A stretch of DNA of 64,000 nucleotides. Source: an uncultured Methanosarcinales archaeon (GTDB lineage Archaea > Nanobdellota > Nanobdellia > Woesearchaeales > JASKKU01). Where the stretch lies: positions 94,647 to 158,646 of the forward strand of contig CAYQFL010000001.1 of the NCBI GenBank assembly GCA_964416905.1. The letters run 5' to 3'. The translations under genes were made by a program, and so were the position numbers. Below the pieces are notes generated by a model. It was not told the origin of the DNA, did no database searches, and saw nothing but the letters and a program-made list of their open reading frames with translations. Shown in pieces: positions 8,021 through 48,604 of this stretch (position 1 is its first letter; each line of letters starts with the position of its first letter).

Positions 8021-8068
8021 AATAATTTAACCTCGAATATTTTTATCAATTTTTACTTTTTTTAGCAC

Positions 8069-8470
8069 TTATTTTTTTTGAGTTGCCGTACTCTTTTTCT
8101 TTGTTCCAGCCTTCTTTCTCTTTTTCTTTTTCTCGTATAATGGAATCAATCGCCTAACCATCTCTCTTAAAATAACTACCTGGATTTCAGGTTTATTGTT
8201 AGCTGAAAGCACTCTTGTTGCCAACTCTTCTTCATCAAAAACATCCTTTATCCAGTTGTAAAAATCGTTCCTTGCATCATTCACATGATATCTAAAAGTC
8301 TCCTCATCCATAAACTCTAAAGCGTCAACAAGTTCAAGCAAATTCTTCAATACTAAGCCATCTCTAACTAAAAAATAATGTTCTGGATCTATCTCCTTAA
8401 ACAAATTATCTTCGTTCGCCTTAGCCTTAACTGAGGCTTTCGACCTTTTGGCACCTTTTTTGAATAACAT
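8069..8470 (-). CDS. Hypothetical small protein with a Lys-rich C-terminal tail
   Basis: 133-aa ORF between glycogen genes. The tail is 'KKKKRKKAGTKKKSTATQKK'. No family recognised. Confidence 0.4.
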   Translation of the reverse strand: MLFKKGAKRSKASVKAKANEDNLFKEIDPEHYFLVRDGLVLKNLLELVDALEFMDEETFRYHVNDARNDFYNWIKDVFDEEELATRVLSANNKPEIQVVILREMVRRLIPLYEKKKKRKKAGTKKKSTATQKK

Positions 8471-8533
8471 TCTTACCCCCCTCTTTTTTTTTCAAAGTAA
8501 AAAATAAACATAAACAAATAACAAAATCTCAAA

Positions 8534-23357: not shown

Positions 23358-23906
23358 ATGACTCTTTCAAAAAAACACTACAAAGCTCAAGCAAGCTTTG
23401 AGTTCTTTATGACTTATGGTTGGATATTTCTTGTAACCATAATAGTGATTTCTGTCTTAATTTATTCAGACATCTTCAATGTTGCTTTGTATTCCCTAAG
23501 TCAAGAATGCGAAATTTATGACCAGTTTGATTGCTTAGCCTCTGCCTGGCATGATTCTGGGAACATAATTTTATCTTTAAGAAGCATTTCTCCCGCAAAT
23601 ATTTATATAAAAAACATAACCTTAATACCCGAACAAACAAACCAACCTGTTAGCTTATTCAACATCTCTTTTGGTGAATGCCGAAAAGATAACCAAACTG
23701 GAGAGTTTTGTGATACTGATATTTTAGCTCAAAGCACTGAATTCCCTACAGCCTCAAAAAGGATTTTTACTCTTGAACCTTTTGGAACATACTTAGAAGG
23801 TAGAAAAAACTTTAAAGCACGGATAATAATAAACTATTATTTTAATGGTAGCGATCCCAATAAGGATTTAAGAACAACGATGGGCCGGTTAAAGATTTCA
23901 AGATAA
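23358..23906 (+). CDS. Archaeal type IV pilin-like protein with a class III signal peptide (DUF361-type)
   Basis: 'KKHYKAQASFEFFMTYGWIFLVTIIVI': a basic stretch, Q-A-S-F-E-F and then a hydrophobic helix, matching the archaeal prepilin peptidase (PibD/EppA) substrate pattern. Confidence 0.7.
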   Translation: MTLSKKHYKAQASFEFFMTYGWIFLVTIIVISVLIYSDIFNVALYSLSQECEIYDQFDCLASAWHDSGNIILSLRSISPANIYIKNITLIPEQTNQPVSLFNISFGECRKDNQTGEFCDTDILAQSTEFPTASKRIFTLEPFGTYLEGRKNFKARIIINYYFNGSDPNKDLRTTMGRLKISR

Positions 23907-23907
23907 A

Positions 23908-24534
23908 ATGATAAGAAAAAAATCTCAGGCAAGCTTTGAATTCATGTTAACATACGGTTGGGTATTCATCTTAGTTCTAGGAGTGATTGCTGCGTTATTA
24001 AGATACAACATAATCAGCTCAGACCTTACCAGCTTAAAGACAGAAACCTGCAAGATTTACTCATCAATGAACTGCTTGGGCGCAGTTTGGCACAATGATG
24101 GTAGCTTAGAGATGGCCATAGCAAACGATGCGCAAACACAGTTACAAATCCATAACATAACTATAAAAGACAAGCTAAACAGGTTTAATCTGTTCTGGTC
24201 CTGGGAACCAAATAATGATGCGCATTATCCCTGTGACCCAACTAAGACTAACTCTGGCTGTACTACAAGTTCTGGAGAGTATTGTGGATATATACCCAAA
24301 GAAACAACAACTATATATGAGCCTGGGGGTCCAATGGTAATAGTCCCAGAATTATGCACGGCAAACTTAACAAAAAACTCCATTTTAAAATTCACCTTGA
24401 CAAACACAAGCCCTGTAGATGACATTAACGAATTCGAAGGAGATATTGAAATAACATACACTTTTCTAGGTTCAAATTTGACAACTGAAACCCATATAGC
24501 CAAAGGTTACATCTACACCAAGAAAGTAGATTAA
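23908..24534 (+). CDS. Archaeal type IV pilin-like protein with a class III signal peptide (second tandem copy)
   Basis: 'MIRKKSQASFEFMLTYGWVFILVLGVIAALL'. It starts 2 nt after the previous pilin and is probably co-transcribed with it. Confidence 0.7.
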   Translation: MIRKKSQASFEFMLTYGWVFILVLGVIAALLRYNIISSDLTSLKTETCKIYSSMNCLGAVWHNDGSLEMAIANDAQTQLQIHNITIKDKLNRFNLFWSWEPNNDAHYPCDPTKTNSGCTTSSGEYCGYIPKETTTIYEPGGPMVIVPELCTANLTKNSILKFTLTNTSPVDDINEFEGDIEITYTFLGSNLTTETHIAKGYIYTKKVD

Positions 24535-24577: not shown

Positions 24578-25291
24578 ATGAAAAAACCTCGCGAGAAATT
24601 CAAGACATACAACGATGTTTTTGACATTTTCACTTTAAGGAATCTCAACAAGATATTTGAGACATTGCAATTAAGAGAACCAAAAGTAATCCCGATTTCT
24701 ATAGGAAAAGAAGCGAATGTCTTCAAACTTGAAGAGGATGAAAAAGTTTTTGCTCTTAAGATTTACAGGTTAGAAACCTGTGATTTTAACCAGATGGAGT
24801 TTTATCTAAGAAACGACAACAGAATAGCTATAAAAACAAAAAAACGGCGAGAGATAATCTTTTATTGGGCTAAACGCGAGTTCTTAAACCTTCAAAAAGT
24901 CAAAGAACTGAACATTAATGCTCCACTGCCTTTTGCGCAAAAGAACAACATTTTAATTATGAGCTTCATAGGAGACGAATGGTCTGCGCCTAAGCTAAAG
25001 GATTATGCTTTTGAAAACCATGAGGAGTTGAATCAAATATTCACAAAAACATTTGAATTCATTTTGAAATTAAAAAACAACAACCTTGTTCACGGAGACT
25101 TATCAGAATACAACATCTTAATAAAAGACTGTGAACCTTATTTTATAGATTTCTCTCACGCAACACCTTTGAACACTAGTTTAGGCATGGAACTTTTGAA
25201 AAGAGACCTAAAAAACATCGCGAAATTCTTCCTGAAAGCAGGCATTTCTAAAGAAGAAATAGATAAAAAAATAAATCAAATTTTAAACTAA
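24578..25291 (+). CDS. RIO-type serine/threonine protein kinase
   Basis: 'ISIGKEANVFKL…VFALKIYR' and 'LVHGDLSEYNILI…FIDFSHA' are RIO kinase motifs. Confidence 0.8.
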   Translation: MKKPREKFKTYNDVFDIFTLRNLNKIFETLQLREPKVIPISIGKEANVFKLEEDEKVFALKIYRLETCDFNQMEFYLRNDNRIAIKTKKRREIIFYWAKREFLNLQKVKELNINAPLPFAQKNNILIMSFIGDEWSAPKLKDYAFENHEELNQIFTKTFEFILKLKNNNLVHGDLSEYNILIKDCEPYFIDFSHATPLNTSLGMELLKRDLKNIAKFFLKAGISKEEIDKKINQILN

Positions 25292-26098
25292 CGGCGCTTT
25301 ACCACCATACATCGCTTTAAACTTGCCATTCGAGAAGTAAAGCGTATACATATTCAAATCTACATCTGTTGCTCTCATCTTAATTACTTGTATAGACCTA
25401 ATAACTTTCCTGTATTGCTCAGTTCTCTCTAAGTAGATTATACCGTCAGATAAATAATCTTCAACACCATATTCACTAAACCTAGATTTATCCAAAGGCA
25501 TCTCAGAAATCAAGAAAGAAGTTATCTGCGAATCTCTAAAAAACTCAAATATATGGAATAACTCTAATCTAGGGTTTTCAAACCTACTTAATATGTATAA
25601 AGCTGACAACGAGTCTAGAGCAATAATGTCTAGCTTTGCTTCGTTTTTAAACCTTCGAATAATGTTCTTAATAACATTAATCCAATCACCCTGCTCACCA
25701 ATCTTTGTATCCTTAATCTGCTTTCTCAACGCGCCTAAATCAACAATAACAAAATTGCCGCCTTTTGATACCTTGATCTCTTTAATTTTATCATCCAGAT
25801 TATTTATATCATGGATAATCACTGTATTAACCTTAGACATATCAAAATCAAGGTTCACTGCGTGGTTTATCAAAGACCAATAAGACTGTTCCAATGAAAA
25901 ATAGATTGTTGTCTTATTCTCGTGCAGAACGTTGTTATAAAGTATGCTGAAAGATAGAGATGATTTCATACTACCTGAGGTACCTGCAACTAACACAACA
26001 CTACCTTCAGGAATACCATTCTGCATGACTTCATCCAGACCTTCAACATAAGTTCTAATTCTTTTAATTTCATCTTTATTAGATAATATATTAACCAT
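25283..26098 (-). CDS. KaiC/RadA-like RecA-superfamily protein with a degenerate Walker A (FlaH/ArlH-like possibility)
   Basis: 'GLDEVMQNGIPEGSVVLVAGTSGSMKSSL' has the KaiC-like layout, but the P-loop reads G-T-S-G-S-M-K-S (M in place of the conserved G), so it may be catalytically impaired. Confidence 0.55.
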   Translation of the reverse strand: MVNILSNKDEIKRIRTYVEGLDEVMQNGIPEGSVVLVAGTSGSMKSSLSFSILYNNVLHENKTTIYFSLEQSYWSLINHAVNLDFDMSKVNTVIIHDINNLDDKIKEIKVSKGGNFVIVDLGALRKQIKDTKIGEQGDWINVIKNIIRRFKNEAKLDIIALDSLSALYILSRFENPRLELFHIFEFFRDSQITSFLISEMPLDKSRFSEYGVEDYLSDGIIYLERTEQYRKVIRSIQVIKMRATDVDLNMYTLYFSNGKFKAMYGGKAPLV

Positions 26099-26101
26099 GG
26101 T

Positions 26102-27379
26102 TTACACCTCTTTTAACGATAAATTATCAACTTTACCTTGTTTTATTCCAATCAAAAGATATTTTTTATTATCTTTATCAACAAACAAATGGGTACCTAC
26201 AATCAAACCATCTAAAGAATATTTGTAAAGCAGTTTTCCCTTATTCTGAGCAGAAGTCTGTGAAAGGTCTCCATCTCCCATCTGGGATGTTATTGATGAA
26301 ATACCCGGAACATAATTAACAACAAAAGAACCTGAGGAATCTAAAACATACAGCGAATAATCTAAAGAACCAACAACAATCTCAGGTTTCCCATCATCAT
26401 CTAAATCTGTAATAATTGGTGTAGAAACCACCCAGAAATCAGTTTCGAAATCCCATAATAGATTTCCTTTATAATCCAGCGCATAAACTTTGTTATCACA
26501 AGAACCAAAAACAATCTCCATGAACCCGTCTTTGTTTATATCTCCAACTGCTGGAGAAGCAACAATCCTTCCATTAGTCTTAAACTTCCAGAACAAATCT
26601 CCATGAGAATTTAAACAGTAAAGATTCTTGTCATATGAGCCAAAGATGATGAATTTCTCTTTAGAATTAGTAATATGTTCAACTACTGGTCTACATGTTA
26701 TTTTATCGTTAGTTTTAAAATCCCACTTGAAAACGCCATTTTTGTCAACAGCAATTAATCTACCATCATTGGCACCAAAAACAATCAGGTTGCCCTCGAA
26801 ACTATCTAAAAGTTGTGGAGATGATTCAACAGGCGACCTAACATAATATCTCCATAAGACTTGACCAGTGTAATCTACGCAATACAAATAACCTGCAGTG
26901 GTTCCAAAGATGATCTCATCAAAATCATCGTTATTGATATCAGTGATTAGGAAATCTGACATGATTTTACCATCAACCTTAAGCTTCCAAACAACTTTGC
27001 CATCAGAACTTAATACAAAAACTGTACCGCTCTCAGATCCAAAGATAATCTCTTTAGAACCGTCCTTATTTATATCTTTTATAATGGGTTTTGTATAAAT
27101 TGTGTACGATGATGATTCGTCCATAAACAAAGATTCTAGTTTTCCTAATTTTTCCTTCAAATCAAAGAGCCATTTAACCTTTGATTGGTCATTTATAACA
27201 AAAAGTTTGCCATCTTTAGTTCCAAAGACAACAACCATCTCGCTAGATTTAGGATCCAGATTTGCTACAACAGGACCTACAGACAAATCTGAAGGAGAAG
27301 TGAATTCCCAGACTTTTACAAAATTAAATTTTTTCTTTCGTTTGTTCAAGAGATTACCGAATAGAGCCATAAGTTTCAA
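26102..27379 (-). CDS. PQQ-repeat (BamB-like) beta-propeller protein
   Basis: Repeated 'DG.(V/L).W.(F/L)' and 'GS.D..(L/V)Y.(L/V)' blades across 425 aa. Confidence 0.7.
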   Translation of the reverse strand: MKLMALFGNLLNKRKKKFNFVKVWEFTSPSDLSVGPVVANLDPKSSEMVVVFGTKDGKLFVINDQSKVKWLFDLKEKLGKLESLFMDESSSYTIYTKPIIKDINKDGSKEIIFGSESGTVFVLSSDGKVVWKLKVDGKIMSDFLITDINNDDFDEIIFGTTAGYLYCVDYTGQVLWRYYVRSPVESSPQLLDSFEGNLIVFGANDGRLIAVDKNGVFKWDFKTNDKITCRPVVEHITNSKEKFIIFGSYDKNLYCLNSHGDLFWKFKTNGRIVASPAVGDINKDGFMEIVFGSCDNKVYALDYKGNLLWDFETDFWVVSTPIITDLDDDGKPEIVVGSLDYSLYVLDSSGSFVVNYVPGISSITSQMGDGDLSQTSAQNKGKLLYKYSLDGLIVGTHLFVDKDNKKYLLIGIKQGKVDNLSLKEV

Positions 27380-27423
27380 AACTCACTACAATATATTTAA
27401 GGTTTTTTAACTCCTAGAAAGTT

Positions 27424-30400
27424 TTAACTCAACTCTCCTTGGAAGATTATGTTTGAGGTTTTAGTTCCCGAAGGTTCATCTGGCGGAACAGTAACTAAAA
27501 TATCCAAATAAGCTTCATCAGAGCTATCATGATAATCCAAATCTGCAATGACCTTCTTAAGATAGCTAGCCAGATTAATCCAATCAATTGCTGAACCTGA
27601 AATGTTTATTGAATTAGCTTCTAAATTTCTAGTTTTAATTCTAAATGCATCGGTGTCTAAAGCTGCTCGTTGGAATAATTGTGTCGCATTGGCTTTTATA
27701 TCCACCTTAACATTTCCATTATTTCTTATAGAAAATGGCTGCGGACTACCTGATGTCGTATTATAACTTTTGCCGACCTCCAAATTACCAAAAGATATCA
27801 AATCATTAATCAAACTAATGTTTATCAATGCCTCAATGCTAAATGTTCCTAAATCAGAAGAAGCACTATAATTCTCTCCATCATAAGCGCTGACATTCCA
27901 GTTATAAACTGCTATGTCAAGTTCTTGTAAAGGTGTATAACTCAATGTTGTCAATCCTGTTTCATGAATATTTGTTCCGGGACAATATTCAGAATTAACT
28001 GTGTTACATTGGTCGAAAGTAACATCCAAGTTATAAGTTATGCTATCACCATCATCATCTTCAACAGGAGACCATTGGAATTGCGGCTGCCTGTTTGTCA
28101 AGATATCATTCATACCTGGATAAATTAAGCCTGGTTTTGTTGGCGGTGTATTCTGAACCTCAATTTGAGCTGAGGATTTTGTAAGCGAATCTCCGTAACC
28201 ATCATTAACAGTGACATCACAGCTGTAATTGTGATGCTTTGAAGTCATTGTGTAATCTAAAACAAACGGTTGATGATGATTTAATCCAGCTTCGTAATTT
28301 TCTTTAACTTGCTCAGATGTTAAAGCGATGTTGTAGATTTGAAAATCATCAATTCTTCCAACAAAGAACTGAGATAAAGAATCATGTGTACCAATATATG
28401 CAACATTTGTTGCACCATCATCAACAGCACCTGATTGAGCAACCGAATTAGAATTGCTGTTCACGAAAAGGTTTATGCTAGTACCATTATAAACTCCAAC
28501 AACATAGCTCCAGGAGTCTAAAGTAACCGGCAAGCTCACCGATTTCCAACTACCGCCATCATTAGTAGTATCCACATAAAAATACACTCTTCCAGAATTT
28601 ATATACATACCGTAAGTTCCTGAAGCTCTCTGAAATATTCTCCTGCTATTTGCATCTGAAACCGTTGGATAAATCCAAGCAGCTACAGAAAAGGTATCTA
28701 TGTCAAAATCTCCGCCAGCAGTTGTTGGAATAGATATATAATCATTCCCATCAAACTCATAACAACCACCAACCATACAATTATTCCCATTCTTGTATGT
28801 TGGCGCATTATTTGAATTTCCGCCGCCCAAAGTTCCATTATTGCTATAAGAAGAATAATCTCTAACTTTACCAGCAGAAACACTGCTAACATTAGAATCG
28901 AAAGGCATATTTAACACAAGCAAAGAACCTCCATCCTTATACCAATTAACAATATAAGTCAGGTTATCGCCATCAACATCGCTTGCGTTAACAGGAGTAC
29001 AAGTAATGTCATTCTTTGTATAAGCTACTCCGTTATAAAGTTCTTGAACCTCTTTTGAAGTAAGAGTTCTATTGAATATCATTACTTCATCAACACTTCC
29101 ATTAAGATAATATGTTGAAGAAGAACCAAATCTGCCGATTCTTCTATATGAGAAAGAATTAATTAAATTCCCGGTTACAGAAAGATTCCCAACATCAACT
29201 CCGTCAATAAAACTACGTTTGTTTGTTCCATTAAATGTAAAACCTATGAAATGCCAATCACCGTCCGTTAATCCAGAACCATGATTGGAAACAAATCTAC
29301 CATTACTTGTTGTCACTCCAGTCCTTACCTCGCCAGTTGTTGGAACGCTTATTTCTAATTCCTGACCACCTAACACTATATGATAACCGCCAGGTGGAGC
29401 TCCTTCAGCCTTAAACCATGCAAATGCAGAAACTTGATTACTATATCCTAAATCTGCAGGCAAATCTATGTAATCATTACCATCAAAATCAAATGCTCCT
29501 GCTGAATAGCCTAACAAAGTGTTAGTGGCACCATAATTTGTACCATCATTGTTGTAAGTTGAGTCATCATTAACATTATCATCCAAAGTCCAATATCCTA
29601 CCAGATCATCAGTTACTTTCGCATGCAAGAAAATCCTTGGAGTATCATGAGTAGGCAAATGGTCCCATCTTGCATTAAAACAAATAAATCCGTTTTGAAC
29701 GGTTCCTGTAGGAACGCAAGAGTTACTTGAATTAACACAATCTGAGGCATCATCGCAGCACGCAGCATAATAGTTTGAATCCATCGAACTATTTACAAGA
29801 TACTCGCCTGAATCATCGCCACAACACTCCAACTCATTGCCGGCAGAATACTCACCAAAAGAGGAAGTTTCTCCACCATTTATCCAAGTTAAAGCAACAC
29901 AATTCCCGTTTGTCGTTGTACAATAACTTTCACCTTCATCCCTATCATGAGAAATGCAACCATAATCACAATACAAATCAGAATTTTGTCTGCAAGTCAT
30001 GGGCTCAATATCATCACAATCCTCTCCGCCAGGACCTGCACAATCGTACTGACAAAGACTTGTATTCACTGATGAACAAACAAAGTTTCCTGGAGACCCT
30101 GCACATTCTGAACAGTTAAAACAATAGTGTGGGTCAATATCTAAACCATATAAAGGCTCAGTAGTACCATCTTCAGCATCACAGTATCCTTGAGAACAAT
30201 TCGCGTTATAATCACATCCAGCACAACCTAATGGCAATCCGTCCTGCCAATAAGCAGGATCCCCATCAGCATCACAAAACCAGCCTGAAGAATCCGCTTC
30301 GGAACAATCAGCAACATCTGTTTCAAACCCCAAATTAACATTATTGTTACAATCATACAATTCTCCATTCCAGCAGAACAAATATTGATATGAAGAACCG

Positions 30401-31452
30401 TGTAAAATAACCTGGCCATCGTAACAACAACTGTTACCTGCTCCGGGATTCTCAAAATCATCATTTGTGCCATCATCACCACAGCATTGGTCTACTCCAG
30501 AAAGCCAGATGTAAGCAGTACATCCCCTAGAAGACTCTTCACAATAAGTACTGCTTTCATCTCTATCATGATTAGTTGCCTCGCACCCTGATGTAGCATT
30601 ACAGGCAACATCTGTCACATAAGTTGAATCATCAACACAACACCAGGTCCAACCATTTGCACAAGAAAGCTGGCAACTGGTGCTGTTAGCATAAGAACCA
30701 TCATTACAAACCGCATCACCATAATAACAAGTTTGATTATCTACGTAACCCCATCCATAAACGCTTGCATTAGAACCGTTCTGTGCACTATTAACATTAC
30801 AGATAATATCACCATAATAACAATTTCTAACACTGCCAGAACCTAACAAAACACCATTACCTATCAAAGTTATATTTGTAACAAAAGAACCATCTAAACA
30901 CCTTTCACATTGCACATAAGTACTAGTACTTAAACTTGAGTTATAATAATAAGAATCGTCATCAAGCGCATCATCGCCACAACATTGTGTTCCAGAAACA
31001 ACTCCATCCATCCAAGTATACTCACAACCAGTTGCTGTACAATAACTTTCCTGCAAATCAGGATCTTTCCAGGTTCCCTGATCACAATAAAGGACATCTC
31101 CTAAAAACAAACCGCAAACGCCGTCAGGTGAACAAACATCAAACAACTCAAAAAAACCTATGTTTGCTTCAAGCGATGTCCCGAAAGCTAAAGCACCCGG
31201 CTGAAAAACCGTTAAAAGAAATCTCGCTTTAGTTGTTGCTGAATCCAAGTTAGAGCCTTGCAAACCCAAGGTTGTACTTTTAACATTAACATTCGTGCCT
31301 TGAGCTACAAACGCAAAAACAACATTGTTATTGATTAAAAAAACAAAAAACACAAGCAAAATAAGAAATAGAACGAAAAACAAATAAAGATGGGATTTTC
31401 TCTTACGGATTCTAAAATCTCCAAACAAAAAATTTTGGACGCCAAATCTCAT
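27424..31452 (-). CDS. Giant (1342 aa) secreted/surface-anchored Cys-rich protein with repeated 'CCGDD' modules and LamG/concanavalin-like domains
   Basis: N-terminal signal anchor (…HLYLFFVLFLILLVFFVFLI…). A ~500-aa Cys-rich region has recurring 'QCCGDD' motifs. Two Laminin_G_3-like segments follow ('DGDWHFIGFTFNGTNKRSFIDGV', 'DSWSYVVGVYNGTSINLFVN'), then Ig/PKD-like beta-rich repeats. Confidence 0.75.
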   Translation of the reverse strand: MRFGVQNFLFGDFRIRKRKSHLYLFFVLFLILLVFFVFLINNNVVFAFVAQGTNVNVKSTTLGLQGSNLDSATTKARFLLTVFQPGALAFGTSLEANIGFFELFDVCSPDGVCGLFLGDVLYCDQGTWKDPDLQESYCTATGCEYTWMDGVVSGTQCCGDDALDDDSYYYNSSLSTSTYVQCERCLDGSFVTNITLIGNGVLLGSGSVRNCYYGDIICNVNSAQNGSNASVYGWGYVDNQTCYYGDAVCNDGSYANSTSCQLSCANGWTWCCVDDSTYVTDVACNATSGCEATNHDRDESSTYCEESSRGCTAYIWLSGVDQCCGDDGTNDDFENPGAGNSCCYDGQVILHGSSYQYLFCWNGELYDCNNNVNLGFETDVADCSEADSSGWFCDADGDPAYWQDGLPLGCAGCDYNANCSQGYCDAEDGTTEPLYGLDIDPHYCFNCSECAGSPGNFVCSSVNTSLCQYDCAGPGGEDCDDIEPMTCRQNSDLYCDYGCISHDRDEGESYCTTTNGNCVALTWINGGETSSFGEYSAGNELECCGDDSGEYLVNSSMDSNYYAACCDDASDCVNSSNSCVPTGTVQNGFICFNARWDHLPTHDTPRIFLHAKVTDDLVGYWTLDDNVNDDSTYNNDGTNYGATNTLLGYSAGAFDFDGNDYIDLPADLGYSNQVSAFAWFKAEGAPPGGYHIVLGGQELEISVPTTGEVRTGVTTSNGRFVSNHGSGLTDGDWHFIGFTFNGTNKRSFIDGVDVGNLSVTGNLINSFSYRRIGRFGSSSTYYLNGSVDEVMIFNRTLTSKEVQELYNGVAYTKNDITCTPVNASDVDGDNLTYIVNWYKDGGSLLVLNMPFDSNVSSVSAGKVRDYSSYSNNGTLGGGNSNNAPTYKNGNNCMVGGCYEFDGNDYISIPTTAGGDFDIDTFSVAAWIYPTVSDANSRRIFQRASGTYGMYINSGRVYFYVDTTNDGGSWKSVSLPVTLDSWSYVVGVYNGTSINLFVNSNSNSVAQSGAVDDGATNVAYIGTHDSLSQFFVGRIDDFQIYNIALTSEQVKENYEAGLNHHQPFVLDYTMTSKHHNYSCDVTVNDGYGDSLTKSSAQIEVQNTPPTKPGLIYPGMNDILTNRQPQFQWSPVEDDDGDSITYNLDVTFDQCNTVNSEYCPGTNIHETGLTTLSYTPLQELDIAVYNWNVSAYDGENYSASSDLGTFSIEALINISLINDLISFGNLEVGKSYNTTSGSPQPFSIRNNGNVKVDIKANATQLFQRAALDTDAFRIKTRNLEANSINISGSAIDWINLASYLKKVIADLDYHDSSDEAYLDILVTVPPDEPSGTKTSNIIFQGELS

Positions 31453-31477
31453 TTCTCATTCTTAAAAGTTTTTATAT

Positions 31478-31930
31478 CTACTGTTGATTTGTTACACAAG
31501 CTACATCGATTATATTGACTGTATAGTTCTCATAATATAAAGGTACAATGCTACAGTTTTGAGTTCTATTCATAATTGATACAATTGCATAAGTAAACCC
31601 GTTGTTCAACCCTAACTGATAATAAGGCAACACACAATTTGCGTCAATTATATTCAAGGTCTCGTTTCCCGAACTTATATTATAAACACTACAATTCAAA
31701 ATTCCCTGTTTAACTTCATCAAAATAATCCGAAACTTGTTGACCTTCCATAGATGTTTTATTACTTCCTAAAAATATGTAAATTAAAAGTCCCACGATGA
31801 TGACCACTAGAACCAGCTCAAACATCTGTCTTGCTAGAAGATTATTTGGCTGAGCAGAACGCTTAGATTTTGAAACCTTGGCTTTTGTTTTACTTTTTCC
31901 TTTTTTTTGTACCATTAAACCCCACCTCAA
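31478..31930 (-). CDS. Small membrane-anchored Cys-containing protein, possibly pilin-like
   Basis: Basic N-terminus (KKGKSKTKAKVSKSKRS), then 'RQMFELVLVVIIVGLLIYIFLG', which resembles a class III signal/anchor. It lies directly upstream of the giant surface protein and is co-oriented with it. Confidence 0.4.
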   Translation of the reverse strand: MRWGLMVQKKGKSKTKAKVSKSKRSAQPNNLLARQMFELVLVVIIVGLLIYIFLGSNKTSMEGQQVSDYFDEVKQGILNCSVYNISSGNETLNIIDANCVLPYYQLGLNNGFTYAIVSIMNRTQNCSIVPLYYENYTVNIIDVACVTNQQ

Positions 31931-34572: not shown

Positions 34573-37500
34573 ATGAGATTTTCAATTTCCAATCGAACTA
34601 ATAAATTTTTGTTGTTAGCAAGTTCTGTTACACTGCTATTTCTTTTAATAAGCATAATTGGAGATTTAACAATTGTGTCTGCAGCCGATGATAATGAGTG
34701 TGGTTGCCCTGACCCTAAAGAACGTAGTCGATGTAACGAAGATTTTACTATGGTAATTACAGAACATTATTTTTGTGAAGATGGCGAGTGTAAAATGCAG
34801 GAGTTTAGTTCAGTTTGTGCTGATTCAAGTTATTGTGATGATAATGAACTTGTATATGTTGAAAGTGTTTGTGTTGCGCCAGAGTATGGAGTAGCATACT
34901 GTGACCTCAAAGAAACACGAACATCTTGTGGTTCAAATGCAAGATGCATAGTTGATAAATGTATCAAAGAACAAGACTATGAAGATTATGATTGTAAGGG
35001 TGACAATATAATTAAACGTATAGGTGTATGCTATGATGCTAATGAAGATGGTGACTGTAGAGATCCTGGTGAAGTAGATATTGAAAGAGAAGTGTTTGTG
35101 AAGGATTGTAACGACTATAATGGTTGGTACTGTTCTGGGGAAACTGGTCAAGAGTATCGAGATTATACTTGCAAAGCTGGATCCTGTACTTCTTATGAAG
35201 TTACTGACACAAGAAGTTGCCCTTCATCAGCACCTTTCTGTTGCAATAGCGATAACGCTTGTCACCAATGTTGCAAAACAGATGATTGTCATGAGATCTT
35301 TGGACTAAATTACTTCTGCAATTCAATCACAAACCAATGTCAATGCTCTCCTGAAGATAAAGAAGAATTGGGTGCGGAATGTGGCCCTAATGGTTGCGAT
35401 CCGCAAGGGTTTGGACTCTGTGATTCCGGTAAAGAATGTGTTGGAAACTTCTGTGTTGATAAAAAAGACTTTAGAACAATTGTAGGTTATCTAAAAGTCA
35501 TAGGACATAATGATAAGGAAATTCTTGTGGAATTAATCCCTTATGATTCTTATCAAGAATCTACTGCAGGCCAGTACTGCTCAAAATTAAACGAATGGTT
35601 CTTTGGAAACCAAAAATGTAAAGGTAAGGGATACAACGAATGTGGTGGCATTCCAGGCAACGATGATATTGTTAATTTTCAAGTTTCAAATTATGAACTA
35701 AAAGATCAGAGTGTTATAATAAACTGTAATCAGAGAGGCCCAATAGACGGATGGTGTGATGGCTCTTCAAGCACTCCCGATTCTCTAACAATCAAATTGT
35801 GTGACCCAAAAAGCAACGTTCCGTGCGATTCTTCAACATATCATATAAATTTAGAGAAACTAGGACTAGATATAAACTGTGTTTATCTTGACGAGGAAAA
35901 GGAGAGCGACAAAAATTGTGAGTCTGAAAGCAAACTAATTCTAAGAGCAGCTAACAATTATGAAACTTGTGATGATTCTGGAGAAGATGTTTGCATCATG
36001 GGCAGATGCGTGAAATACGTATGCTATCATAATAACAGAATAGATGGCAGCGAAAGCTGTGACCCTGTAGCGCCACAAACATATAACGCTTCTGGAACCA
36101 TAGTCACAGAGGACGACATTACATGCTCATTACTTTGGATGAACCCAAAAGATAACGATCTTTCCTTAAAACCATCGTGCCTAAAAAGTTGCGTGATTAA
36201 CACTCGAAACTGCGAGCAATTATCTAGTTTATGCGGGAACTACAAATTAGATTCAAAGGAGAATTATGACGAACTTTGCGATATAAGAGAAGAACCTTTA
36301 ATAACAAAATACCTAAATGGTAATGAAATTGAAATAACAGCACAATTTAAAGATAAACATAGTTGTGCTGAAAAAGAAGGTTACATTGGTGATGCCAGCC
36401 TGCTTTCATGCAAAGGTTGTTTAGCCATAGATTATGAGAATTGTGAACAAGAAGCCATCAGTGGAGAGGATAAAACTGAAAAAACTTGTAATGATGGTTT
36501 AAACGAAGATTACTGGTATGACCTTTTCATTCCTGAAGGGGCGGATAGATCTGAATATATTATAGATAATTATCTTAATGAATTTGGTTATTTTGATAAG
36601 GAGAAACTTAAGTTTGACACAAGCAAATGTTTTAATGAAACAAATTGCTTTGATTGCTATGATATTGATTGTGATGGCAAAGAGGCTATCGATGGAAAAC
36701 TTTGCAATTTCAAAACTGAAAGAATGTGTAATGATAATTTTGACAACGATGGTGATGGTTTAATAGATAGTGAAGATAACGACTGCAATTCAGAGGGATA
36801 TAACCCCGAATTATCCTTAAAAGGATTTTGTAGTAGTACAAAACAATGTTTTGATGATGATTTCAACGAATGCCTGCCTGAGGGTTATAAACAATCAGTA
36901 AATAATAAAATAGTAATCTGTAGTGCTGGTAGATGGATTTCAGCAATAAAAGCAGAAGCTAACTTACTTTATGAAAACGCCATAAATAAACAAAAGTTCA
37001 CATTATACTGTAATGATTTTGGTGACGCCTTTGAAGATAATCAAGGGTATGTAATTTCATTAGAAAGTAAGCTTCCGAGCGGAGATGTGCAGGTTGGCGA
37101 TTTTATGAAATCTTACGGGAGCTTTTATGGCAAGTTCTGCGCGTTCAAAAGCAATGAAGATTATGCTATTTCAACAAGGATTAAAGGACTAGAAAATGAT
37201 CCTTCAAGATTAGCATTTGCAATGCAGTTGTTCTCAACGAATCCTTCATGTTGCAATGGAATTAATGATGATTCCACAACAAAAATCTCTAAGTGCGATG
37301 AAAACATTTCAATAAACAAGAAGTATGGAATTGTAATAAAAACAAACGAAGATATTGATGGAAAAGAACTTTTAAAGACAGAAGCTATCAATGAAAAGAT
37401 AAAAGCATTAAAAGATTATCTATCAATAATAGGAATTAACAATTTCGCGAGTGATAACCTTTGGAGAGGTTCGTTAACAGAAGCGCTTGCTTGGAAGAAA

Positions 37501-37788
37501 TCTGGTGAAAAAGAATTATTTGGGATCGTTGAAAATATCAACGGCACAATTTATGCAGTGGTCCTACTTACAAATGTAGGTACCAGTTTTGAGGATTCCT
37601 GTAGCATTATAAATTCTGAACAAACAATTAAAATCGGAGAGAATCTTGCAGGAATATGTCAAAATGTAAACGACGATGACTTCATAATTCACTGGGCAAT
37701 TCATAAAGAGGTGCCTAATAAAGAAAACCTTATTAAAATCTCTTTAGACAGGTTTGATACATTAGTAAAATCTATAAAGATAAATTAA
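34573..37788 (+). CDS. Secreted Cys-rich protein, paralog A (1071 aa) of a tandem triplet; carries a DxDxDG calcium-binding-type motif
   Basis: Signal peptide (…LLISIIGDLTIVSA|ADD). A unique ~570-aa Cys-rich N-region is followed by a C-terminal ~500 aa shared with the next two ORFs ('GYIGDASLLSCKGC', 'CNDGLNEDYWYDL', 'KTERMCNDNFDNDGDGLIDSEDNDC', 'FYGKFCAFKSNEDY', C-terminal 'FDTLVKSIKIN'). Confidence 0.8.
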   Translation: MRFSISNRTNKFLLLASSVTLLFLLISIIGDLTIVSAADDNECGCPDPKERSRCNEDFTMVITEHYFCEDGECKMQEFSSVCADSSYCDDNELVYVESVCVAPEYGVAYCDLKETRTSCGSNARCIVDKCIKEQDYEDYDCKGDNIIKRIGVCYDANEDGDCRDPGEVDIEREVFVKDCNDYNGWYCSGETGQEYRDYTCKAGSCTSYEVTDTRSCPSSAPFCCNSDNACHQCCKTDDCHEIFGLNYFCNSITNQCQCSPEDKEELGAECGPNGCDPQGFGLCDSGKECVGNFCVDKKDFRTIVGYLKVIGHNDKEILVELIPYDSYQESTAGQYCSKLNEWFFGNQKCKGKGYNECGGIPGNDDIVNFQVSNYELKDQSVIINCNQRGPIDGWCDGSSSTPDSLTIKLCDPKSNVPCDSSTYHINLEKLGLDINCVYLDEEKESDKNCESESKLILRAANNYETCDDSGEDVCIMGRCVKYVCYHNNRIDGSESCDPVAPQTYNASGTIVTEDDITCSLLWMNPKDNDLSLKPSCLKSCVINTRNCEQLSSLCGNYKLDSKENYDELCDIREEPLITKYLNGNEIEITAQFKDKHSCAEKEGYIGDASLLSCKGCLAIDYENCEQEAISGEDKTEKTCNDGLNEDYWYDLFIPEGADRSEYIIDNYLNEFGYFDKEKLKFDTSKCFNETNCFDCYDIDCDGKEAIDGKLCNFKTERMCNDNFDNDGDGLIDSEDNDCNSEGYNPELSLKGFCSSTKQCFDDDFNECLPEGYKQSVNNKIVICSAGRWISAIKAEANLLYENAINKQKFTLYCNDFGDAFEDNQGYVISLESKLPSGDVQVGDFMKSYGSFYGKFCAFKSNEDYAISTRIKGLENDPSRLAFAMQLFSTNPSCCNGINDDSTTKISKCDENISINKKYGIVIKTNEDIDGKELLKTEAINEKIKALKDYLSIIGINNFASDNLWRGSLTEALAWKKSGEKELFGIVENINGTIYAVVLLTNVGTSFEDSCSIINSEQTIKIGENLAGICQNVNDDDFIIHWAIHKEVPNKENLIKISLDRFDTLVKSIKIN

Positions 37789-37806
37789 AAAAGATGTGGT
37801 GAACCC

Positions 37807-40245
37807 ATGGGATTTTTTGAAAAAAGCTCAATTTTTACAAAAGGTATAATGCCTAAAGTGTTTAAGCTTTCTTTGATTATAGCAATAATTGCTATTAGCT
37901 TGCTAATTACAAGTTGCGGTGATGACGATTCTGATGCCGCCAGTGAACCTGACGAAGACAAGATAAATAAAAACCTGTTTCTAGGTTATATTAATGTCAA
38001 TTCAGATCAAGATAATGCTCTTGTAGATTATTCAATTATTGGTAACAAATACAACCTTGCTTCATCAATTCAATTCTGCAAACTTGCTGACAACATTTAT
38101 CATCGTGGTGCTTGCGCAGGTAAGGCATGGGATGAATGCGGTTTCTGGGATTTTAAAATGAGAGATTTCTTCTACTTCACACAACTTGATAATGAAACGG
38201 CAAAGGTTACTTGCTCTCAACGAGGCATATTTGATACTTGTTCTCCGTCCGATTATTCTTCAATAAATGCAAAAATCCGCTTATGTGATAGCAATGAAAG
38301 CGATAAAAATTGTACTGCAGGTATTAATGAAATTCTTATAGACCTCAATAAACAAGGTTATGATATAGATTGTACACGGCTTTTTGCGTTAACTAGTGGA
38401 GCGGACTGTGCGCCTTCAGACTTCCTTATACTTTACCATGTTAATGACTTCCAACCATGCGATCCTTACAATGATGAACTGGTATGTGTTTGGGGGAAAT
38501 GTACAAAATATGTTTGTATCCCGAATAACAAGTTAGACCCTTACGAGCTTTGTGATCCTAAAGCACAACTCTTTAATTTAAGCGGAAGAGAAGTATCTGG
38601 TACTGCGATTAGTTGCCAAGATTTCTCAGGGGTGCCAAGCACTGAAGGAGGAAAGCCTATTTGCAGAGATGATTGCACACCAGATATCTCTGAATGCACC
38701 CTTGAGCCAGGTCAGGTGCTTTGCCAGAATAATGTGTTAGAAAGCTTTCCAGACGTGGGTTATACTGAAGTGTGTGAGTGGGGTAATGGAGAAGAGTATT
38801 ATCTTCATCCAGATGGAACTCAAAAAGAGAAACAGTATATCTTCAAAACACAGAGTTTCTGTGCTCAACAGGAAGGTTATATCGGCGATGCATCTAATTT
38901 AGAATGCGATGCTTGTACTGAAATAAACTATGACAATTGTCTAAGCGTTCAGCTCACAAAACCAAAAGAAGAAAACTGTGGTAACGGTTTAAATGACGAT
39001 TACTGGTACGATCTTTACATCGAAGGAGACAATAGAACTGAGTATATCGCAGAGAATTATCTTGATGAATATGGTTATTTTGAGGATTACAAGTTTGACA
39101 CAACAAAATGCTTCAGTGAAACAAACTGCTCTGATTGCCATGATGTTGATTGTGATGGCAGAGTTACCTTCGGAAACAATTACTGTAACTTCAAAACTGA
39201 AAGAATGTGTAACGATAACTTTGACAACGATGGCGATGGCTTAATTGATGAACAAGATAGTGATTGCAGTTTTGAAAGATATAATCCAGATTTATCGCTA
39301 AAAGGATTATGCGATGCTGAAGAGAAATGTTTTGATGAAAGTGAACTTGAATGCATAGATGACTCAGCAGTATTTACAAAGAATAATAAGGCATTTATAT
39401 GTAACGAAGGAAACTGGATTAACGAAATAAAACTTATCTCGGCCTTAAGTTATGCTAAATTAAAAAATCAACAATCCCTGGTACTTTATTGTAACGACCC
39501 CGCTGATTTCACAACTGGAAAAAGTTATGTAATCGAACTCAATTCTAAAATACGAGGTACTCAGGAGACGGTTTCCGAGTTCATAGGAACACAAGAACAA
39601 GCTAATGCACTTTATGGAAAGTTCTGCGCTGCAAAAAGTGATGACGAATATCTTCTCGGAACGATTTTAAAAAACAAAAACGAAATACATCACAGCATTT
39701 TACTATTCTACCCACTTGGAACAATATGTGATGGAATTAACAAAGATGCTGAGCAACTTCAAAGATGCAATAACACCCAAATGTTTATGAATTATAAAAC
39801 AGGTATAGTATTAAAAACAAATATCTTTAGTAGTGATCAAGTAGAATTATTTAACGGAATTAATGAAATCGATAACAAGATTAAAGAGTTAAAAAAGGCT
39901 GGCGGACAATACTTGGTGACCAATTCACTTGAAGATTTAGAGAAAACCGGAGATATTGAAGCATTTGCGTTGAAGAAAAATGAAGATAAAGAATTATTAG
40001 GTATTATCGCTAAAGTAAACTCAACTTGGTACTCTATTGTTTACATAAAAAATGTACCTTCATTTGCTGAAATTTGTAAATCTATGACTTTAAACATCGC
40101 AAGCGGAGATATGACCAGAACTGTCACTTGCAAGCAAGAAATAGGTACAAACAACTTTGTGATTGCATGGACAATACCTACAGAACAAACGTTAATCTAT
40201 TCAAAAGCCAAATTCGACGAACTAGTTAAGGAAATAAGGATTTAG
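37807..40245 (+). CDS. Secreted/lipobox-like Cys-rich protein, paralog B (812 aa)
   Basis: N-terminal anchor ending 'LLITSCGDDDSD' (lipobox-like). It aligns colinearly with paralog C along the whole length and with the C-terminal half of A. It contains 'CNDNFDNDGDGLIDEQDSDC'. Confidence 0.8.
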   Translation: MGFFEKSSIFTKGIMPKVFKLSLIIAIIAISLLITSCGDDDSDAASEPDEDKINKNLFLGYINVNSDQDNALVDYSIIGNKYNLASSIQFCKLADNIYHRGACAGKAWDECGFWDFKMRDFFYFTQLDNETAKVTCSQRGIFDTCSPSDYSSINAKIRLCDSNESDKNCTAGINEILIDLNKQGYDIDCTRLFALTSGADCAPSDFLILYHVNDFQPCDPYNDELVCVWGKCTKYVCIPNNKLDPYELCDPKAQLFNLSGREVSGTAISCQDFSGVPSTEGGKPICRDDCTPDISECTLEPGQVLCQNNVLESFPDVGYTEVCEWGNGEEYYLHPDGTQKEKQYIFKTQSFCAQQEGYIGDASNLECDACTEINYDNCLSVQLTKPKEENCGNGLNDDYWYDLYIEGDNRTEYIAENYLDEYGYFEDYKFDTTKCFSETNCSDCHDVDCDGRVTFGNNYCNFKTERMCNDNFDNDGDGLIDEQDSDCSFERYNPDLSLKGLCDAEEKCFDESELECIDDSAVFTKNNKAFICNEGNWINEIKLISALSYAKLKNQQSLVLYCNDPADFTTGKSYVIELNSKIRGTQETVSEFIGTQEQANALYGKFCAAKSDDEYLLGTILKNKNEIHHSILLFYPLGTICDGINKDAEQLQRCNNTQMFMNYKTGIVLKTNIFSSDQVELFNGINEIDNKIKELKKAGGQYLVTNSLEDLEKTGDIEAFALKKNEDKELLGIIAKVNSTWYSIVYIKNVPSFAEICKSMTLNIASGDMTRTVTCKQEIGTNNFVIAWTIPTEQTLIYSKAKFDELVKEIRI

Positions 40246-40270
40246 TCGAAATTTTTAACTGCCTTTTTAG

Positions 40271-42640
40271 GTGAAAAACATGAATTTTTTTGAAAAGAAA
40301 TCCAATTTAAAGGCGAATCTAAATGCGGGTAGATTATTTTTACTGCTTTTAGTAGTGATTGTTGTAAGCTTACTAAATGCAAGTTATGTGAACGCTAGGG
40401 TAATTGGATATGTGAGCATAAACCCTAACCAGTGGAACAATGTAATTGATTATTCTGTTAGCAGCTCGTCTACCCAAGCCACTTCAGCTAAATTTTGCGA
40501 CCTGGCAGACAACCTGTTTAATAATAACGGATGTGGAGACAAAACATGGGGAGAATGTGATTTCTGGGATTTTCAAATGAAGGATTATGTGTATTTTGAA
40601 AATATAAACGACAACGAAGTGGGCCTTACTTGTTCTCAACGGGGACTATTTGATGGCTGTTCAGGTTCTTCTGCTTTTTATCCAACAATAAAATTATGTG
40701 ATAGCAGTTATGAAAATTGTGTTGCTAATAGTGGTGAAATTGTTATAGACCTTAAAAAAGTGGGTTTATCTAAGAAGTGTACAAGGCTTGGTGCTAGCAC
40801 ATCTGGCGACGAATGTTCACCTGACGACACACTCAAACTTTATACAAAGAACAACTATGAAGTATGCGCTGAAACTCCTGAAGGTGCAGATTATGAACTA
40901 AGATGTATAAGTGGAAAATGTGCAAGGTATCAGTGCATAAACGACAACTATCAATTAGACCCGTATGAGCCTTGTGATCCGGGAGTACAAAAATTCAATG
41001 TAGGTGGTGAAATAAAAACTGCGGACGAGATTACATGTTTGGATTTTGATATGTATCCAAATAGTGAGGGAGAAAGACCAATCTGCGGTAATGATTGTAA
41101 ACCTGACCTTAGTATGTGCACATCTCAACCAAGCCTTTGCCCAGATTATAAAATTGAAAAATACAATGTACTGGATTATGTCGAAAAATGCGATTTAGCT
41201 AAAACTCCTGAAAGTTATGTTCATCCTGACGGAACCAAGAAAACAAAACAACATATATTCTCATCAAAAGCATTTTGTGCTCAACAGGAAGGTTATATCG
41301 GTGATGCTTCATATTTAGAATGCGAGGGTTGTACTGAAATCAGCTATGATGCTTGCCCAACAGTTCAACTCACAAAACAAAAAGAGCAAAATTGCGGGAA
41401 TGGTTTAAATGACGATTACTGGTACGATCTTTACATCGAAGGAGACAATAGAACTAAGTATATCGCAGAGAATTATCTTGATGAGCAAGGTTATTTTGAG
41501 AATTATAAGTTTGACACAAGCAGATGTTTTAGTGAAACGAATTGCTCTGATTGTTATGATATTGATTGCGACGGCAAAGTCACTTACGATGGTAAATACT
41601 GTAACTTCAAAACTGAAAGAATGTGTAACGATAACTTTGACAACGATGGTGACGGCTTAATTGATGAACAAGATAGTGATTGCAGTTTTGAAAGATATAA
41701 TCCACATTTATCGCTAAAAGGATTATGCGATGCTGAAGAGAAATGTTTTGATGAAAGTGAACTTGAATGCATAAATGATTCAGAGGTTTTTGTGAAAGAC
41801 AAAACGTTTGTATGTAAAGATGGAAACTGGATTAATGAAATAAAACTCATCTCAGCGCTAACTTATGATAAGCTAAAAGATCAACAATCATTAATACTTT
41901 ATTGTAACGACCCCGCAGATTTCACAAACCAAAGAGGTTACGTAATTGACATCATGAATACTAAAACTGCAACCGGTATGAACACATTTGATTTCATGTC
42001 ATCTCAGAGAGCGTTATATGGAAAATTCTGTGCAGCGAAAACGGATGATTATTATCTCATAGGAACTGTTTTAAAAAGCAAAGAGGCAATAAGTAATGCA
42101 GTACTCTTATTTAATTCAAATGGAACAATATGTGATGAGATTACAAACAACGATAACATATTACATCAATGTAAGAACACTCAAGTTTTCTTAAACTATA
42201 AAACAGGCATACTATTAAAGACAAATATCTTTAATGATGGAGCACAATTATTTAACGGAATTAATGAAATAAATACCAAGATTGAAGAGTTAAAAAGCGC
42301 GGGCGAGCCTTATCTAGGATATAACTCACTTCAAGACCTAGAAAAAAGCGGAGAAATTGAAGCGTTTGCGTTAAAGAAAAGTGGGGAGAAAGAACTACTG
42401 GGTATAATTGCTAAAGTAAACTCAACTTGGTATGCCATTGTTTACATAAAAAATGTGCCATCCTTTACTGAAGTTTGTGACACTATGAACGAAAAAGCAA
42501 CCTTAACGATAGTAGATACGCCAATTAAATGCCAGGAAATTAACAACAATTTTGTAATCGCTTGGAGAATAGCTGATGAATCAGTGTTGGAAGAGTCTAA
42601 GTATAAATTCGACAAACTAGTTAAAGAATTAAAGCTATGA
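40271..42640 (+). CDS. Secreted Cys-rich protein, paralog C (789 aa)
   Basis: Signal peptide (…LLNASYVNA|RV). It is highly similar to paralog B and includes a ~380-bp near-identical nucleotide stretch. Confidence 0.8.
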   Translation: MKNMNFFEKKSNLKANLNAGRLFLLLLVVIVVSLLNASYVNARVIGYVSINPNQWNNVIDYSVSSSSTQATSAKFCDLADNLFNNNGCGDKTWGECDFWDFQMKDYVYFENINDNEVGLTCSQRGLFDGCSGSSAFYPTIKLCDSSYENCVANSGEIVIDLKKVGLSKKCTRLGASTSGDECSPDDTLKLYTKNNYEVCAETPEGADYELRCISGKCARYQCINDNYQLDPYEPCDPGVQKFNVGGEIKTADEITCLDFDMYPNSEGERPICGNDCKPDLSMCTSQPSLCPDYKIEKYNVLDYVEKCDLAKTPESYVHPDGTKKTKQHIFSSKAFCAQQEGYIGDASYLECEGCTEISYDACPTVQLTKQKEQNCGNGLNDDYWYDLYIEGDNRTKYIAENYLDEQGYFENYKFDTSRCFSETNCSDCYDIDCDGKVTYDGKYCNFKTERMCNDNFDNDGDGLIDEQDSDCSFERYNPHLSLKGLCDAEEKCFDESELECINDSEVFVKDKTFVCKDGNWINEIKLISALTYDKLKDQQSLILYCNDPADFTNQRGYVIDIMNTKTATGMNTFDFMSSQRALYGKFCAAKTDDYYLIGTVLKSKEAISNAVLLFNSNGTICDEITNNDNILHQCKNTQVFLNYKTGILLKTNIFNDGAQLFNGINEINTKIEELKSAGEPYLGYNSLQDLEKSGEIEAFALKKSGEKELLGIIAKVNSTWYAIVYIKNVPSFTEVCDTMNEKATLTIVDTPIKCQEINNNFVIAWRIADESVLEESKYKFDKLVKELKL

Positions 42641-46360: not shown

Positions 46361-46367
46361 TTTCGCA

Positions 46368-48603: not shown

Positions 48604-48604
48604 T

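Follow-up and report, generated by a model that had tools for sequence, protein, structure and literature searches.

Do the four consecutive minus-strand genes at positions 25283-31930 of a 64,000-nucleotide (nt) stretch of contig CAYQFL010000001.1 (called here, at its full length, the window) form one system at the cell surface? The first-pass annotation of this DNA had taken them for a single operon, encoding a pilin-like small protein, a giant protein with Cys-rich repeats and laminin-G (LamG) domains, a PQQ/BamB-like beta-propeller and a KaiC-like protein with a degenerate P-loop, all serving one surface system. We propose instead that the interval probably holds two functionally separate units that are adjacent in one small Woesearchaeota clade. 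Unit A (31915-27424) would be a lineage-specific surface cassette of two co-transcribed genes, small and giant; Unit B (27408-25283) would be a propeller-KaiC pair, widely conserved in Woesearchaeota and Nanoarchaeota and apparently equipped with its own promoter.

The genes themselves stand much as first described: four neighbouring open reading frames (ORFs) on the minus strand with short gaps, on which our ORF list and an independent gene caller, run on the source contig (ENA ERZ27248172 k141_664888, 77.8 kb), agree. The gaps are 25 nt from the small to the giant gene, 53 nt from the giant to the propeller gene and 3 nt from the propeller to the KaiC-like gene. The ORF of the small gene reaches back to a TTG at 31930; its likely start is the ATG at 31915, which is preceded by a Shine-Dalgarno-like GAGGTGG and gives a protein of 145 amino acids (aa). 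The propeller gene likely starts at ATG 27370 (422 aa), differing slightly from the ORF list. The window is archaeal in content (TFB, RIO1 kinase, wyosine and methylthiotransferase tRNA-modification enzymes; G+C about 33%) and its nearest relatives are metagenome-assembled genomes (MAGs) labelled Candidatus Woesearchaeota.

Gene order in relatives separates the two units. We used the KaiC-like protein as the synteny anchor and scanned one genome per species; relatives were found in 379 genomes, and the ORFs of the best 80 loci, from Woesearchaeota/Nanoarchaeota, were searched with the window proteins. A propeller gene lies directly upstream of the KaiC-like gene and on the same strand in 73 of these 80 species-level loci, with a median gap of 12 nt and with a gap of at most 20 nt, or an overlap, in 51 of the 73. 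The same immediate upstream position was found in all six contigs of different relatives whose neighbouring genes were annotated with Pfam. The giant LamG and small genes accompany the pair in only four of the 80 loci (L010-L013, KaiC identity at least 75%), and 69 further species loci have the pair with no LamG or small gene within 10 kb. Among the six annotated contigs, too, the giant and small genes occur only where the KaiC-like protein is 77% identical, and there about 20 kb is collinear with the window. The conservation of all four genes in L010-L013 is uninformative because the whole region of about 20 kb is collinear there. Two homologs of the Cys-rich region of the giant protein sit in loci without KaiC, propeller or small upstream gene. 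The first-pass annotation had suggested looking for synteny of the KaiC-like, propeller and giant genes in relatives; that check, now run, goes essentially against the single system.

What most often stands upstream of the pair is a different gene. A major facilitator superfamily (MFS)-like gene was found in 50 of the 80 loci (loci L015-L089; e.g. L006, 6135-7595), and in 48 it lies upstream of the propeller gene and is divergent from the pair. Its product has about 480 aa, 10-11 transmembrane helices and a cytoplasmic N-terminal extension of about 75 aa, and scores 24.6 bits against MFS_1, under the cut-off. This gene was found neither in the window nor in the four giant-bearing genomes, where the giant/small cassette occupies its place upstream of the pair. 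Nor was a second KaiC or propeller paralog found in the window.

The spacer between the two units contains a promoter-like element. The 53 nt between the stop codon of the giant gene and the ATG of the propeller gene read ...gttAAAAAACCTTAAATATAttgtagtgagttttgaaacttATG, and within them AAAAAACC-TTAAATATA combines a purine-rich stretch resembling a B recognition element (BRE) with a TATA-like box whose centre lies some 26 nt ahead of the propeller ATG. An archaeal promoter that drives a leaderless mRNA is built in this way. The element recurs at the same distance in all four giant-bearing genomes (L010, L011, L012 and L013), and among 50 other loci there are 33 whose best TATA-like match falls at -23 to -34 of the propeller ATG, against about 8 expected under uniform placement. 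We predict that the element is the promoter of a leaderless propeller-KaiC transcript. The KaiC-like gene, behind its 3-nt gap, has no room for a promoter of its own. The small and giant genes also abut, overlapping by 4 nt in L012 and lying 2 nt apart in L013. With a promoter-like motif before the propeller gene, no promoter room before the KaiC-like gene and the small and giant genes abutting in those two relatives, the best reading is therefore of two predicted transcription units, small plus giant and propeller plus KaiC-like. A sigma-70 promoter scan returned fewer sites than shuffled sequence; the model is not applicable to archaea and its result was not used.

The predicted locations of the proteins divide in the same place. 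Not one of the 72 full-length orthologs of the propeller has a hydrophobic segment in its first 70 residues: the Kyte-Doolittle 19-residue maxima have a median of 0.58, with none above 1.6, and the chains open with a short basic N-terminus. The KaiC-like protein likewise has no N-terminal hydrophobic segment on the Kyte-Doolittle scale. Because such segments are missing, both proteins are predicted to be cytoplasmic, and the propeller is thus predicted not to be exposed at the surface. The first-pass placement of propeller and KaiC-like protein among surface components finds no signal peptide or transmembrane helix to rest on in either.

Several observations weigh against the division into two units as set out here. 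Our synteny counts cover the best 80 of 379 matching genomes. TATA-like strings are common in DNA of 33% G+C, and transcription may read through from the giant into the propeller gene. The propeller has conserved D-x-N-x-D-G-x-x-E loops that resemble FG-GAP cation-binding loops; loops of this D-x-N-x-D-G type are commoner in extracellular proteins and are odd for a cytoplasmic propeller. Finally, the role that we propose below for the small protein is drawn purely from its adjacency to the giant in four genomes.

What kind of protein is the ATPase of Unit B? Its membership of the KaiC family, called in the first pass, is clear from PF06745 (130.8 bits against a cut-off of 26.6, E = 6.6e-38), and 497 homologs were found at E <= 1e-10, the top matches listed being about 270 aa long and 50-89% identical. 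A profile of the family matched KaiC best among PDB sequences (1.5e-40), followed by PH0186 (1.2e-24) and by SSO2452 and PH0284 (about 1e-20). An AlphaFold2 (AF2) model (predicted local distance difference test, pLDDT, 86; predicted template-modelling score, pTM, 0.87) had the KaiC CI domain and PH0186 as its best fold matches, with Foldseek E values of about 1e-18 and target-normalised template-modelling scores of 0.8-0.9. It is not a circadian KaiC, which requires two tandem domains and about 500 aa: this protein is a single domain of 271 aa, scoring 98.4 against a cut-off of 408 bits for PRK09302 and 61.8 against 546 bits for TIGR02655, and it has no second domain and no sign of clock partners. 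It falls below the cut-off of every curated NCBIfam KaiC-type equivalog. With PH0186/PH0284, SSO2452, Haloferax CirA and the KaiC CI domain it shares PF06745, the RecA fold, the catalytic Glu and Walker B; it differs from those single-domain KaiC-like ATPases in a fixed Met in Walker A, an insertion peculiar to the family (about residues 90-150), an invariant YGGxxPL tail at the C-terminus and an obligate upstream propeller gene. We conclude that it is a member of a distinct, uncurated subfamily of single-domain KaiC-like ATPases, and not FlaH. A reading as part of a defence system was dropped, PADLOC having given only a 14-bit match (E = 0.006) to this protein.

The P-loop deserves separate attention. 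GTSGSMKS, noted in the first pass, departs from the canonical Walker A, G-x-x-x-x-G-K-[ST], by a Met in place of the Gly before the Lys, a position at which nearly all P-loop nucleoside triphosphatases (NTPases) carry Gly. One could take the bulky Met to mean that the protein is an inactive pseudo-ATPase and the pair a purely structural scaffold, and the first-pass annotation had leaned that way in calling the loop degenerate. The Met (M44) is, however, a family trait: it is invariant in 26 aligned members (51-89% identity), and 187 of 188 distinct members of the KaiC-like family have the P-loop G-x-x-G-x-M-K-[ST]. The Walker Lys (K45), the catalytic Glu (E70, in LEQS; 183 of 188) and the Walker B Asp (D162, in LDSLSAL) are conserved across the family and, with the Ser/Thr of the loop, invariant among the 26 members, so that the protein has the catalytic Glu and Walker B Asp of the KaiC family. 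Loss of activity is unlikely, because invariant catalytic residues would not be expected if nucleotide chemistry had been lost. MCM helicases, moreover, are active with a residue other than Gly at that P-loop position.

The propeller was also correctly recognised as PQQ/BamB-like in the first pass. It exceeds the Pfam cut-offs of Beta-prop_ACSF4 (162.4 against 133 bits), PQQ_2 (60.5 against 27.6 bits), Beta-prop_CGLA and FG-GAP, and has 958 homologs at E <= 1e-10, the top matches listed being about 420 aa long and about 40% identical. Its AF2 model (pLDDT 84.7, pTM 0.83) shows eight blades, with residues 349-374 forming a disordered loop, so that profiles and modelled strand pattern agree on a PQQ-like 8-bladed fold. 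Among solved folds the designed 'Cake' propellers come top, and the nearest natural ones are BamB, YxaL and 3hxj of M. maripaludis (Foldseek E 1e-16 to 1e-18); BamB and YxaL are also the best natural PDB matches. All three natural folds belong to scaffolds and not to enzymes. It is neither a BamB equivalog (TIGR03300, 70.9 against 285 bits) nor a PQQ-dependent dehydrogenase (TIGR03075, 24.9 against 480 bits). The likeness to BamB, YxaL and 3hxj lies in the 8-bladed PQQ-type fold with no sign of enzyme motifs, and BamB is a scaffold protein; the propeller here differs in being archaeal, predicted cytoplasmic, paired with an ATPase, provided with FG-GAP-type loops and without a lipoprotein or Sec signal. 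BamB itself is an outer-membrane assembly lipoprotein that needs a Gram-negative outer membrane, whereas the organism here is an archaeon.

For Unit B we suggest the following. A cytoplasmic 8-bladed propeller scaffold would be translationally coupled to the single-domain KaiC-like ATPase; by analogy with KaiC, ArlH and CirA-type proteins, the ATPase may form a ring, bind and slowly turn over nucleotide, and act as a switch, while the propeller, by analogy again, may be its protein-interaction platform, on either the input or the output side. The MFS-like protein, whose gene shares a divergent promoter region with the pair in most genomes, would be a candidate target. The pair is conserved tightly in genomes of about 1 Mb, which suggests that its function is important. 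A bolder reading, which we put forward tentatively as a possibility only, is that the propeller and the Met-P-loop KaiC-like ATPase, in most genomes together with the MFS-like protein, would form an undescribed cytoplasmic regulatory complex, widespread in Woesearchaeota and Nanoarchaeota, that controls a transporter or some other core function of archaea that depend on hosts, and that the CCGDD region of the giant protein would separately represent a new extracellular disulfide-rich family. In such a complex a ring of ATPases with an altered, probably slow, nucleotide cycle would dock on the propeller, perhaps through the YGGxxPL tail. We found no description of the propeller-KaiC pair in Woesearchaeota in the literature covered, which did not include the main survey of archaeal KaiC-like families. 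With its fixed Met P-loop, its obligate propeller partner and KaiC-like relatives in 379 species genomes, the pair varies a theme known from KaiC-like ATPases. Such archaeal ATPases were reportedly proposed by Makarova, Galperin and Koonin (2017) to be signalling hubs with varied partner domains, a proposal for which the pair offers a clean test case.

Many MAGs with the gene pair are titled 'uncultured Methanosarcinales archaeon', and a few carry Planctomycetia, Alphaproteobacteria or Nitrospiraceae names; such labels probably reflect placeholder or wrong taxonomy, or binning contamination.

Unit A is of another kind. The giant protein consists of an N-terminal signal/anchor, a Cys-rich stalk with CCGDD motifs, a first LamG domain, a linker, a second LamG domain and an unassigned C-terminal part of about 290 aa that is mostly free of Cys. 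Its Kyte-Doolittle 19-residue maximum is 3.35, at residue 22, and no later hydrophobic segment follows. The two LamG domains called in the first pass were recovered by Laminin_G_3 in two stretches (E = 1.1e-45, 155.9 against a cut-off of 27.6 bits), with Pentaxin and Laminin_G_2 matching more weakly. Signal/anchor, Cys-rich stalk and two LamG domains together bear out the view of the giant as a secreted or anchored, lectin-type surface protein. The Ig/PKD-like repeats also described there did not reappear: the inter-LamG and C-terminal segments had no Pfam match at E <= 1, and residues 600-1342 no PDB sequence match. No S-layer family was found among the Pfam and NCBIfam matches of the giant, libraries from which woesearchaeal S-layer proteins may be missing.

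The repeated CCGDD motif turned out to be the hallmark of a real but rare repeat family. In the window protein the Cys-rich region (residues about 105-595) contains 52 Cys, with CCGDD at residues 157, 323 and 543, CCVDD at 271 and CCDD at 565, and it includes three modules of about 40 aa, each ending in W-x(5-10)-CCGDD. The region has no Pfam match at E <= 1. An earlier word-index search had returned 7 partial matches and missed close orthologs; an exhaustive HMMER search matched 59 of 1.84 billion cluster representatives at E <= 1e-3. We examined 59 sequences (53 representatives and 6 word-index matches), nearly all of which have CCG[DN]D after W-x(5-10) and many of which have, by eye, a hydrophobic, signal-peptide-like N-terminus. 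The module W-x(5-10)-CCGDD-x-x-[ED][ND][FY] occurs in up to 12 matched stretches per protein (P0248-P0300), and no Pfam or NCBIfam model covers it. The giant defines a rare CCGDD Cys-rich module outside the domain databases.

Divergence within the cassette is uneven. Identity to L012/L013 is 75-77% for the KaiC-like protein, 60% for the propeller, 46% for the giant and 24-26% for the small protein; within the giant, compared with L013, the LamG segments are 28-35% identical, the Cys-rich stalk 58% and the 80-aa segment between the LamG domains 60%. This pattern suggests diversifying selection on the putative ligand-binding parts, and fast divergence centred on the lectin domains fits a partner-specific adhesin. 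Large, organism-specific secreted proteins of the LamG/concanavalin A (ConA)-like type are common in DPANN archaea and have been proposed as host-attachment factors (PMC7443923, PMC5498576). Like those of Ca. Nanohalobium constans and Ca. Mancarchaeum Mia14, the giant is large and secreted, has LamG domains and many N-glycosylation sequons, and is lineage-specific and fast-evolving; it differs from them in its 500-aa CCGDD stalk, the small membrane-protein gene upstream and the absence of any PKD domain detected by Pfam. It fits as a further member of this known class of DPANN LamG adhesin-like proteins, with an unannotated stalk domain. As one whose LamG domains evolve faster than its stalk, it is a concrete candidate for a factor in woesearchaeotal host attachment. 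TafC, a subunit of haloarchaeal Tat-fimbriae (NF052521; PMC11821415), was considered and rejected: the match is partial (E = 8.4e-16, 58 against 410 bits) and aligns only the LamG part, the N-terminus of the giant, MRFGVQNFLFGDFRIRKRKSH, lacks a twin-arginine motif of the RR-x-F-L-K type, and no tafA/tafE-like neighbours were identified.

The small protein was the basis for speaking of a pilin. It has a Lys-rich N-terminal tail, one transmembrane helix (Kyte-Doolittle 19-residue maximum 2.95 at residue 36) and an outer domain of about 95 aa with four Cys and several N-x-S/T sequons; Pfam, NCBIfam and PADLOC gave no match. Its orthologs, found only in L011-L013, are 24-47% identical and keep the helix and all four Cys. 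The junction with the helix reads ...LLARQ/MFELV in the window and ...KLNQNN/MLIL in L012, and no conserved [KR][GAS] cleavage motif was found in the protein or its orthologs. The anchor half of the 'class-III-signal-like anchor' of the first pass therefore stands and the class III half does not, and with the latter goes the name pilin-like. Canonical archaeal class III signals followed by a hydrophobic helix are found in two tandem plus-strand genes, 23358-23906 and 23908-24534 (182 and 208 aa), whose motif [KR][SAG]-Q-[AF]-[SA]-x-E-[FT] is invariant in the L011-L013 orthologs and in L054; two Cys are conserved in their products, and Pfam gave no match. In this region the label pilin-like belongs to these two genes and not to the 145-aa protein. 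The Cys-containing small membrane protein is, to judge from adjacency, most likely a tether or anchor, a partner or a maturation helper of the giant. In our model of Unit A the giant would be exported through its N-terminal signal/anchor and carry the disulfide-rich CCGDD stalk, its LamG domains would most likely bind glycans or glycoproteins, whether these sit on a host cell, on a partner cell or on a substrate, and the small protein would most likely tether it or aid its maturation.

Could all four genes still be co-transcribed as one surface module, with the KaiC-like protein and the propeller helping to assemble or regulate a giant adhesin and a pilin-like subunit? The common strand, the three short gaps and the order kept in the four closest relatives speak for this, but those relatives are collinear far beyond the four genes, the pair is on its own in 69 loci, the propeller gene has a promoter-like motif in front of it, its product lacks an export signal and the small protein lacks a class III motif. 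The one-operon, one-system claim is largely refuted by synteny, and we regard it as very unlikely. The four genes should not be entered in a catalogue as one 'surface system'; the conserved propeller-KaiC pair is the part worth pursuing.

Other genes recur around the pair in a minority of the 80 loci: NFACT-R in 23, HerA-like in 18 and Metallophos/Mre11-like in 16. The NFACT-R gene, of a ribosome quality control-type RNA-binding family, in its 23 loci (L019-L032 and others; e.g. L019, 3327-4112) is the next gene after the KaiC-like one and shares its strand, and the HerA-like and Metallophos genes adjoin the MFS-like gene in 16-18 loci. In the window a RIO1 kinase gene (24578-25291, plus strand) runs towards the KaiC-like gene, and the two share 9 nt at the 3' end of the latter. 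Eight other species loci (L019, L071 and six more) have a RIO/protein-kinase-like gene of about 245 aa as the immediate same-strand neighbour upstream of the propeller gene. The RIO-kinase proximity may be chance or a loose kinase association.

Such neighbours raise the possibility of a role for the pair in DNA or RNA transactions, with the KaiC-like protein as a recombination mediator of the RadA-paralog type and the propeller as its scaffold. The RecA fold, weak matches to DnaB_C and RadA models and the recurrence of HerA-like, Metallophos/Mre11-like and NFACT-R genes nearby are consistent with this. These genes are, however, found in a minority of loci, where they are on the other strand or on the far side of the MFS-like gene, and clade-level collinearity may explain them; KaiC proper is by far the best match, and no DNA-binding domain was detected. 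A role in recombination thus seems highly improbable to us.

There remains a reading that extends the FlaH-like component suggested in the first pass: the KaiC-like protein would be an accessory ATPase of the ArlH/FlaH type in a type IV filament machine, together with the genes at 23358-24534 and the T2SSE/T2SSF genes at 45275-48603. ArlH belongs to the same superfamily and is of similar size, the genes with class III signals lie about 750 nt beyond the 3' end of the KaiC-like gene, and the window has a FlaI-like ATPase gene and two platform genes. The filament core (45275-50719, minus strand) comprises a FlaI/TadA-like ATPase of 481 aa, which scores 268 bits where the FlaI cut-off is 550, two T2SSF platform genes, separate and each of half size (273 and 361 aa), and, upstream, a 704-aa protein with only a weak winged-helix match; none of the window ORFs scanned looked like a prepilin peptidase. 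The KaiC-like protein scores only 38.8 against 215 bits for the NCBIfam ArlH model NF052589 and 38.4 against 194 bits for PRK06067, its family profile matches PDB FlaH at 9e-7 and 6e-4, far behind KaiC, and FlaH is absent from the top 50 fold matches of its model. Sequence and fold are much nearer KaiC. Nor does the gene lie beside arlI/arlJ-type genes, as in an archaellum operon: the type IV ATPase gene is 19 kb away, and in the six loci of relatives whose surroundings were annotated with Pfam, the 8-10 kb on either side contained no T2SSE or T2SSF gene. The pilin-like genes run in the opposite direction, with the RIO1 kinase gene in between; they accompany the pair only in the four close relatives, and have a match in just one of 76 other loci, 9 kb away. 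Of the readings considered, an ArlH-type role is the one to which we give least credence.

Table. Positions of the four genes and of features within and between them (window coordinates)
Feature	Position	Strand	Basis
Small single-pass membrane protein gene, 145 aa	31478..31915	-	ORF list, gene caller
Giant protein gene, 1342 aa	27424..31452	-	ORF list, Laminin_G_3
Cys-rich region of giant, residues ~100-600	29653..31155	-	Motif positions, Cys density
LamG domain 1 of giant, residues ~630-805	~29038-29565	-	Laminin_G_3
LamG domain 2 of giant, residues 901-1050	28303..28752	-	Best Laminin_G_3 stretch, full-length profile match
BRE/TATA-like element	27392..27408	-	53-nt spacer sequence, kept in relatives
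Beta-propeller gene, 422 aa	26102..27370	-	Pfam, AF2 model
KaiC-like ATPase gene, 271 aa	25283..26098	-	PF06745
Variant Walker A GTSGSMKS, residues 39-46	25961..25984	-	KaiC-like protein

Two further regions of the window drew our attention. Three consecutive plus-strand genes (34573-37788, 37807-40245 and 40271-42640) encode large Cys-rich proteins of 1071, 812 and 789 aa with no Pfam family. Each stays below the threshold of the NCBIfam model 'acidic double-disulfide repeat', with 31-33 bits where the cut-off is 41, and they are, by phmmer, not homologous to the CCGDD region. The block 34573-42640 is a putative second set of unannotated surface proteins. On the minus strand, 3441-11030 is a glycogen cluster with a GDE_C debranching-enzyme-like protein, a GalT-like transferase, a eukaryote-type Glycogen_syn (E = 1.4e-132), a GH57 protein and a GT4/GT5 synthase; a cluster of this kind is typical of DPANN storage metabolism.

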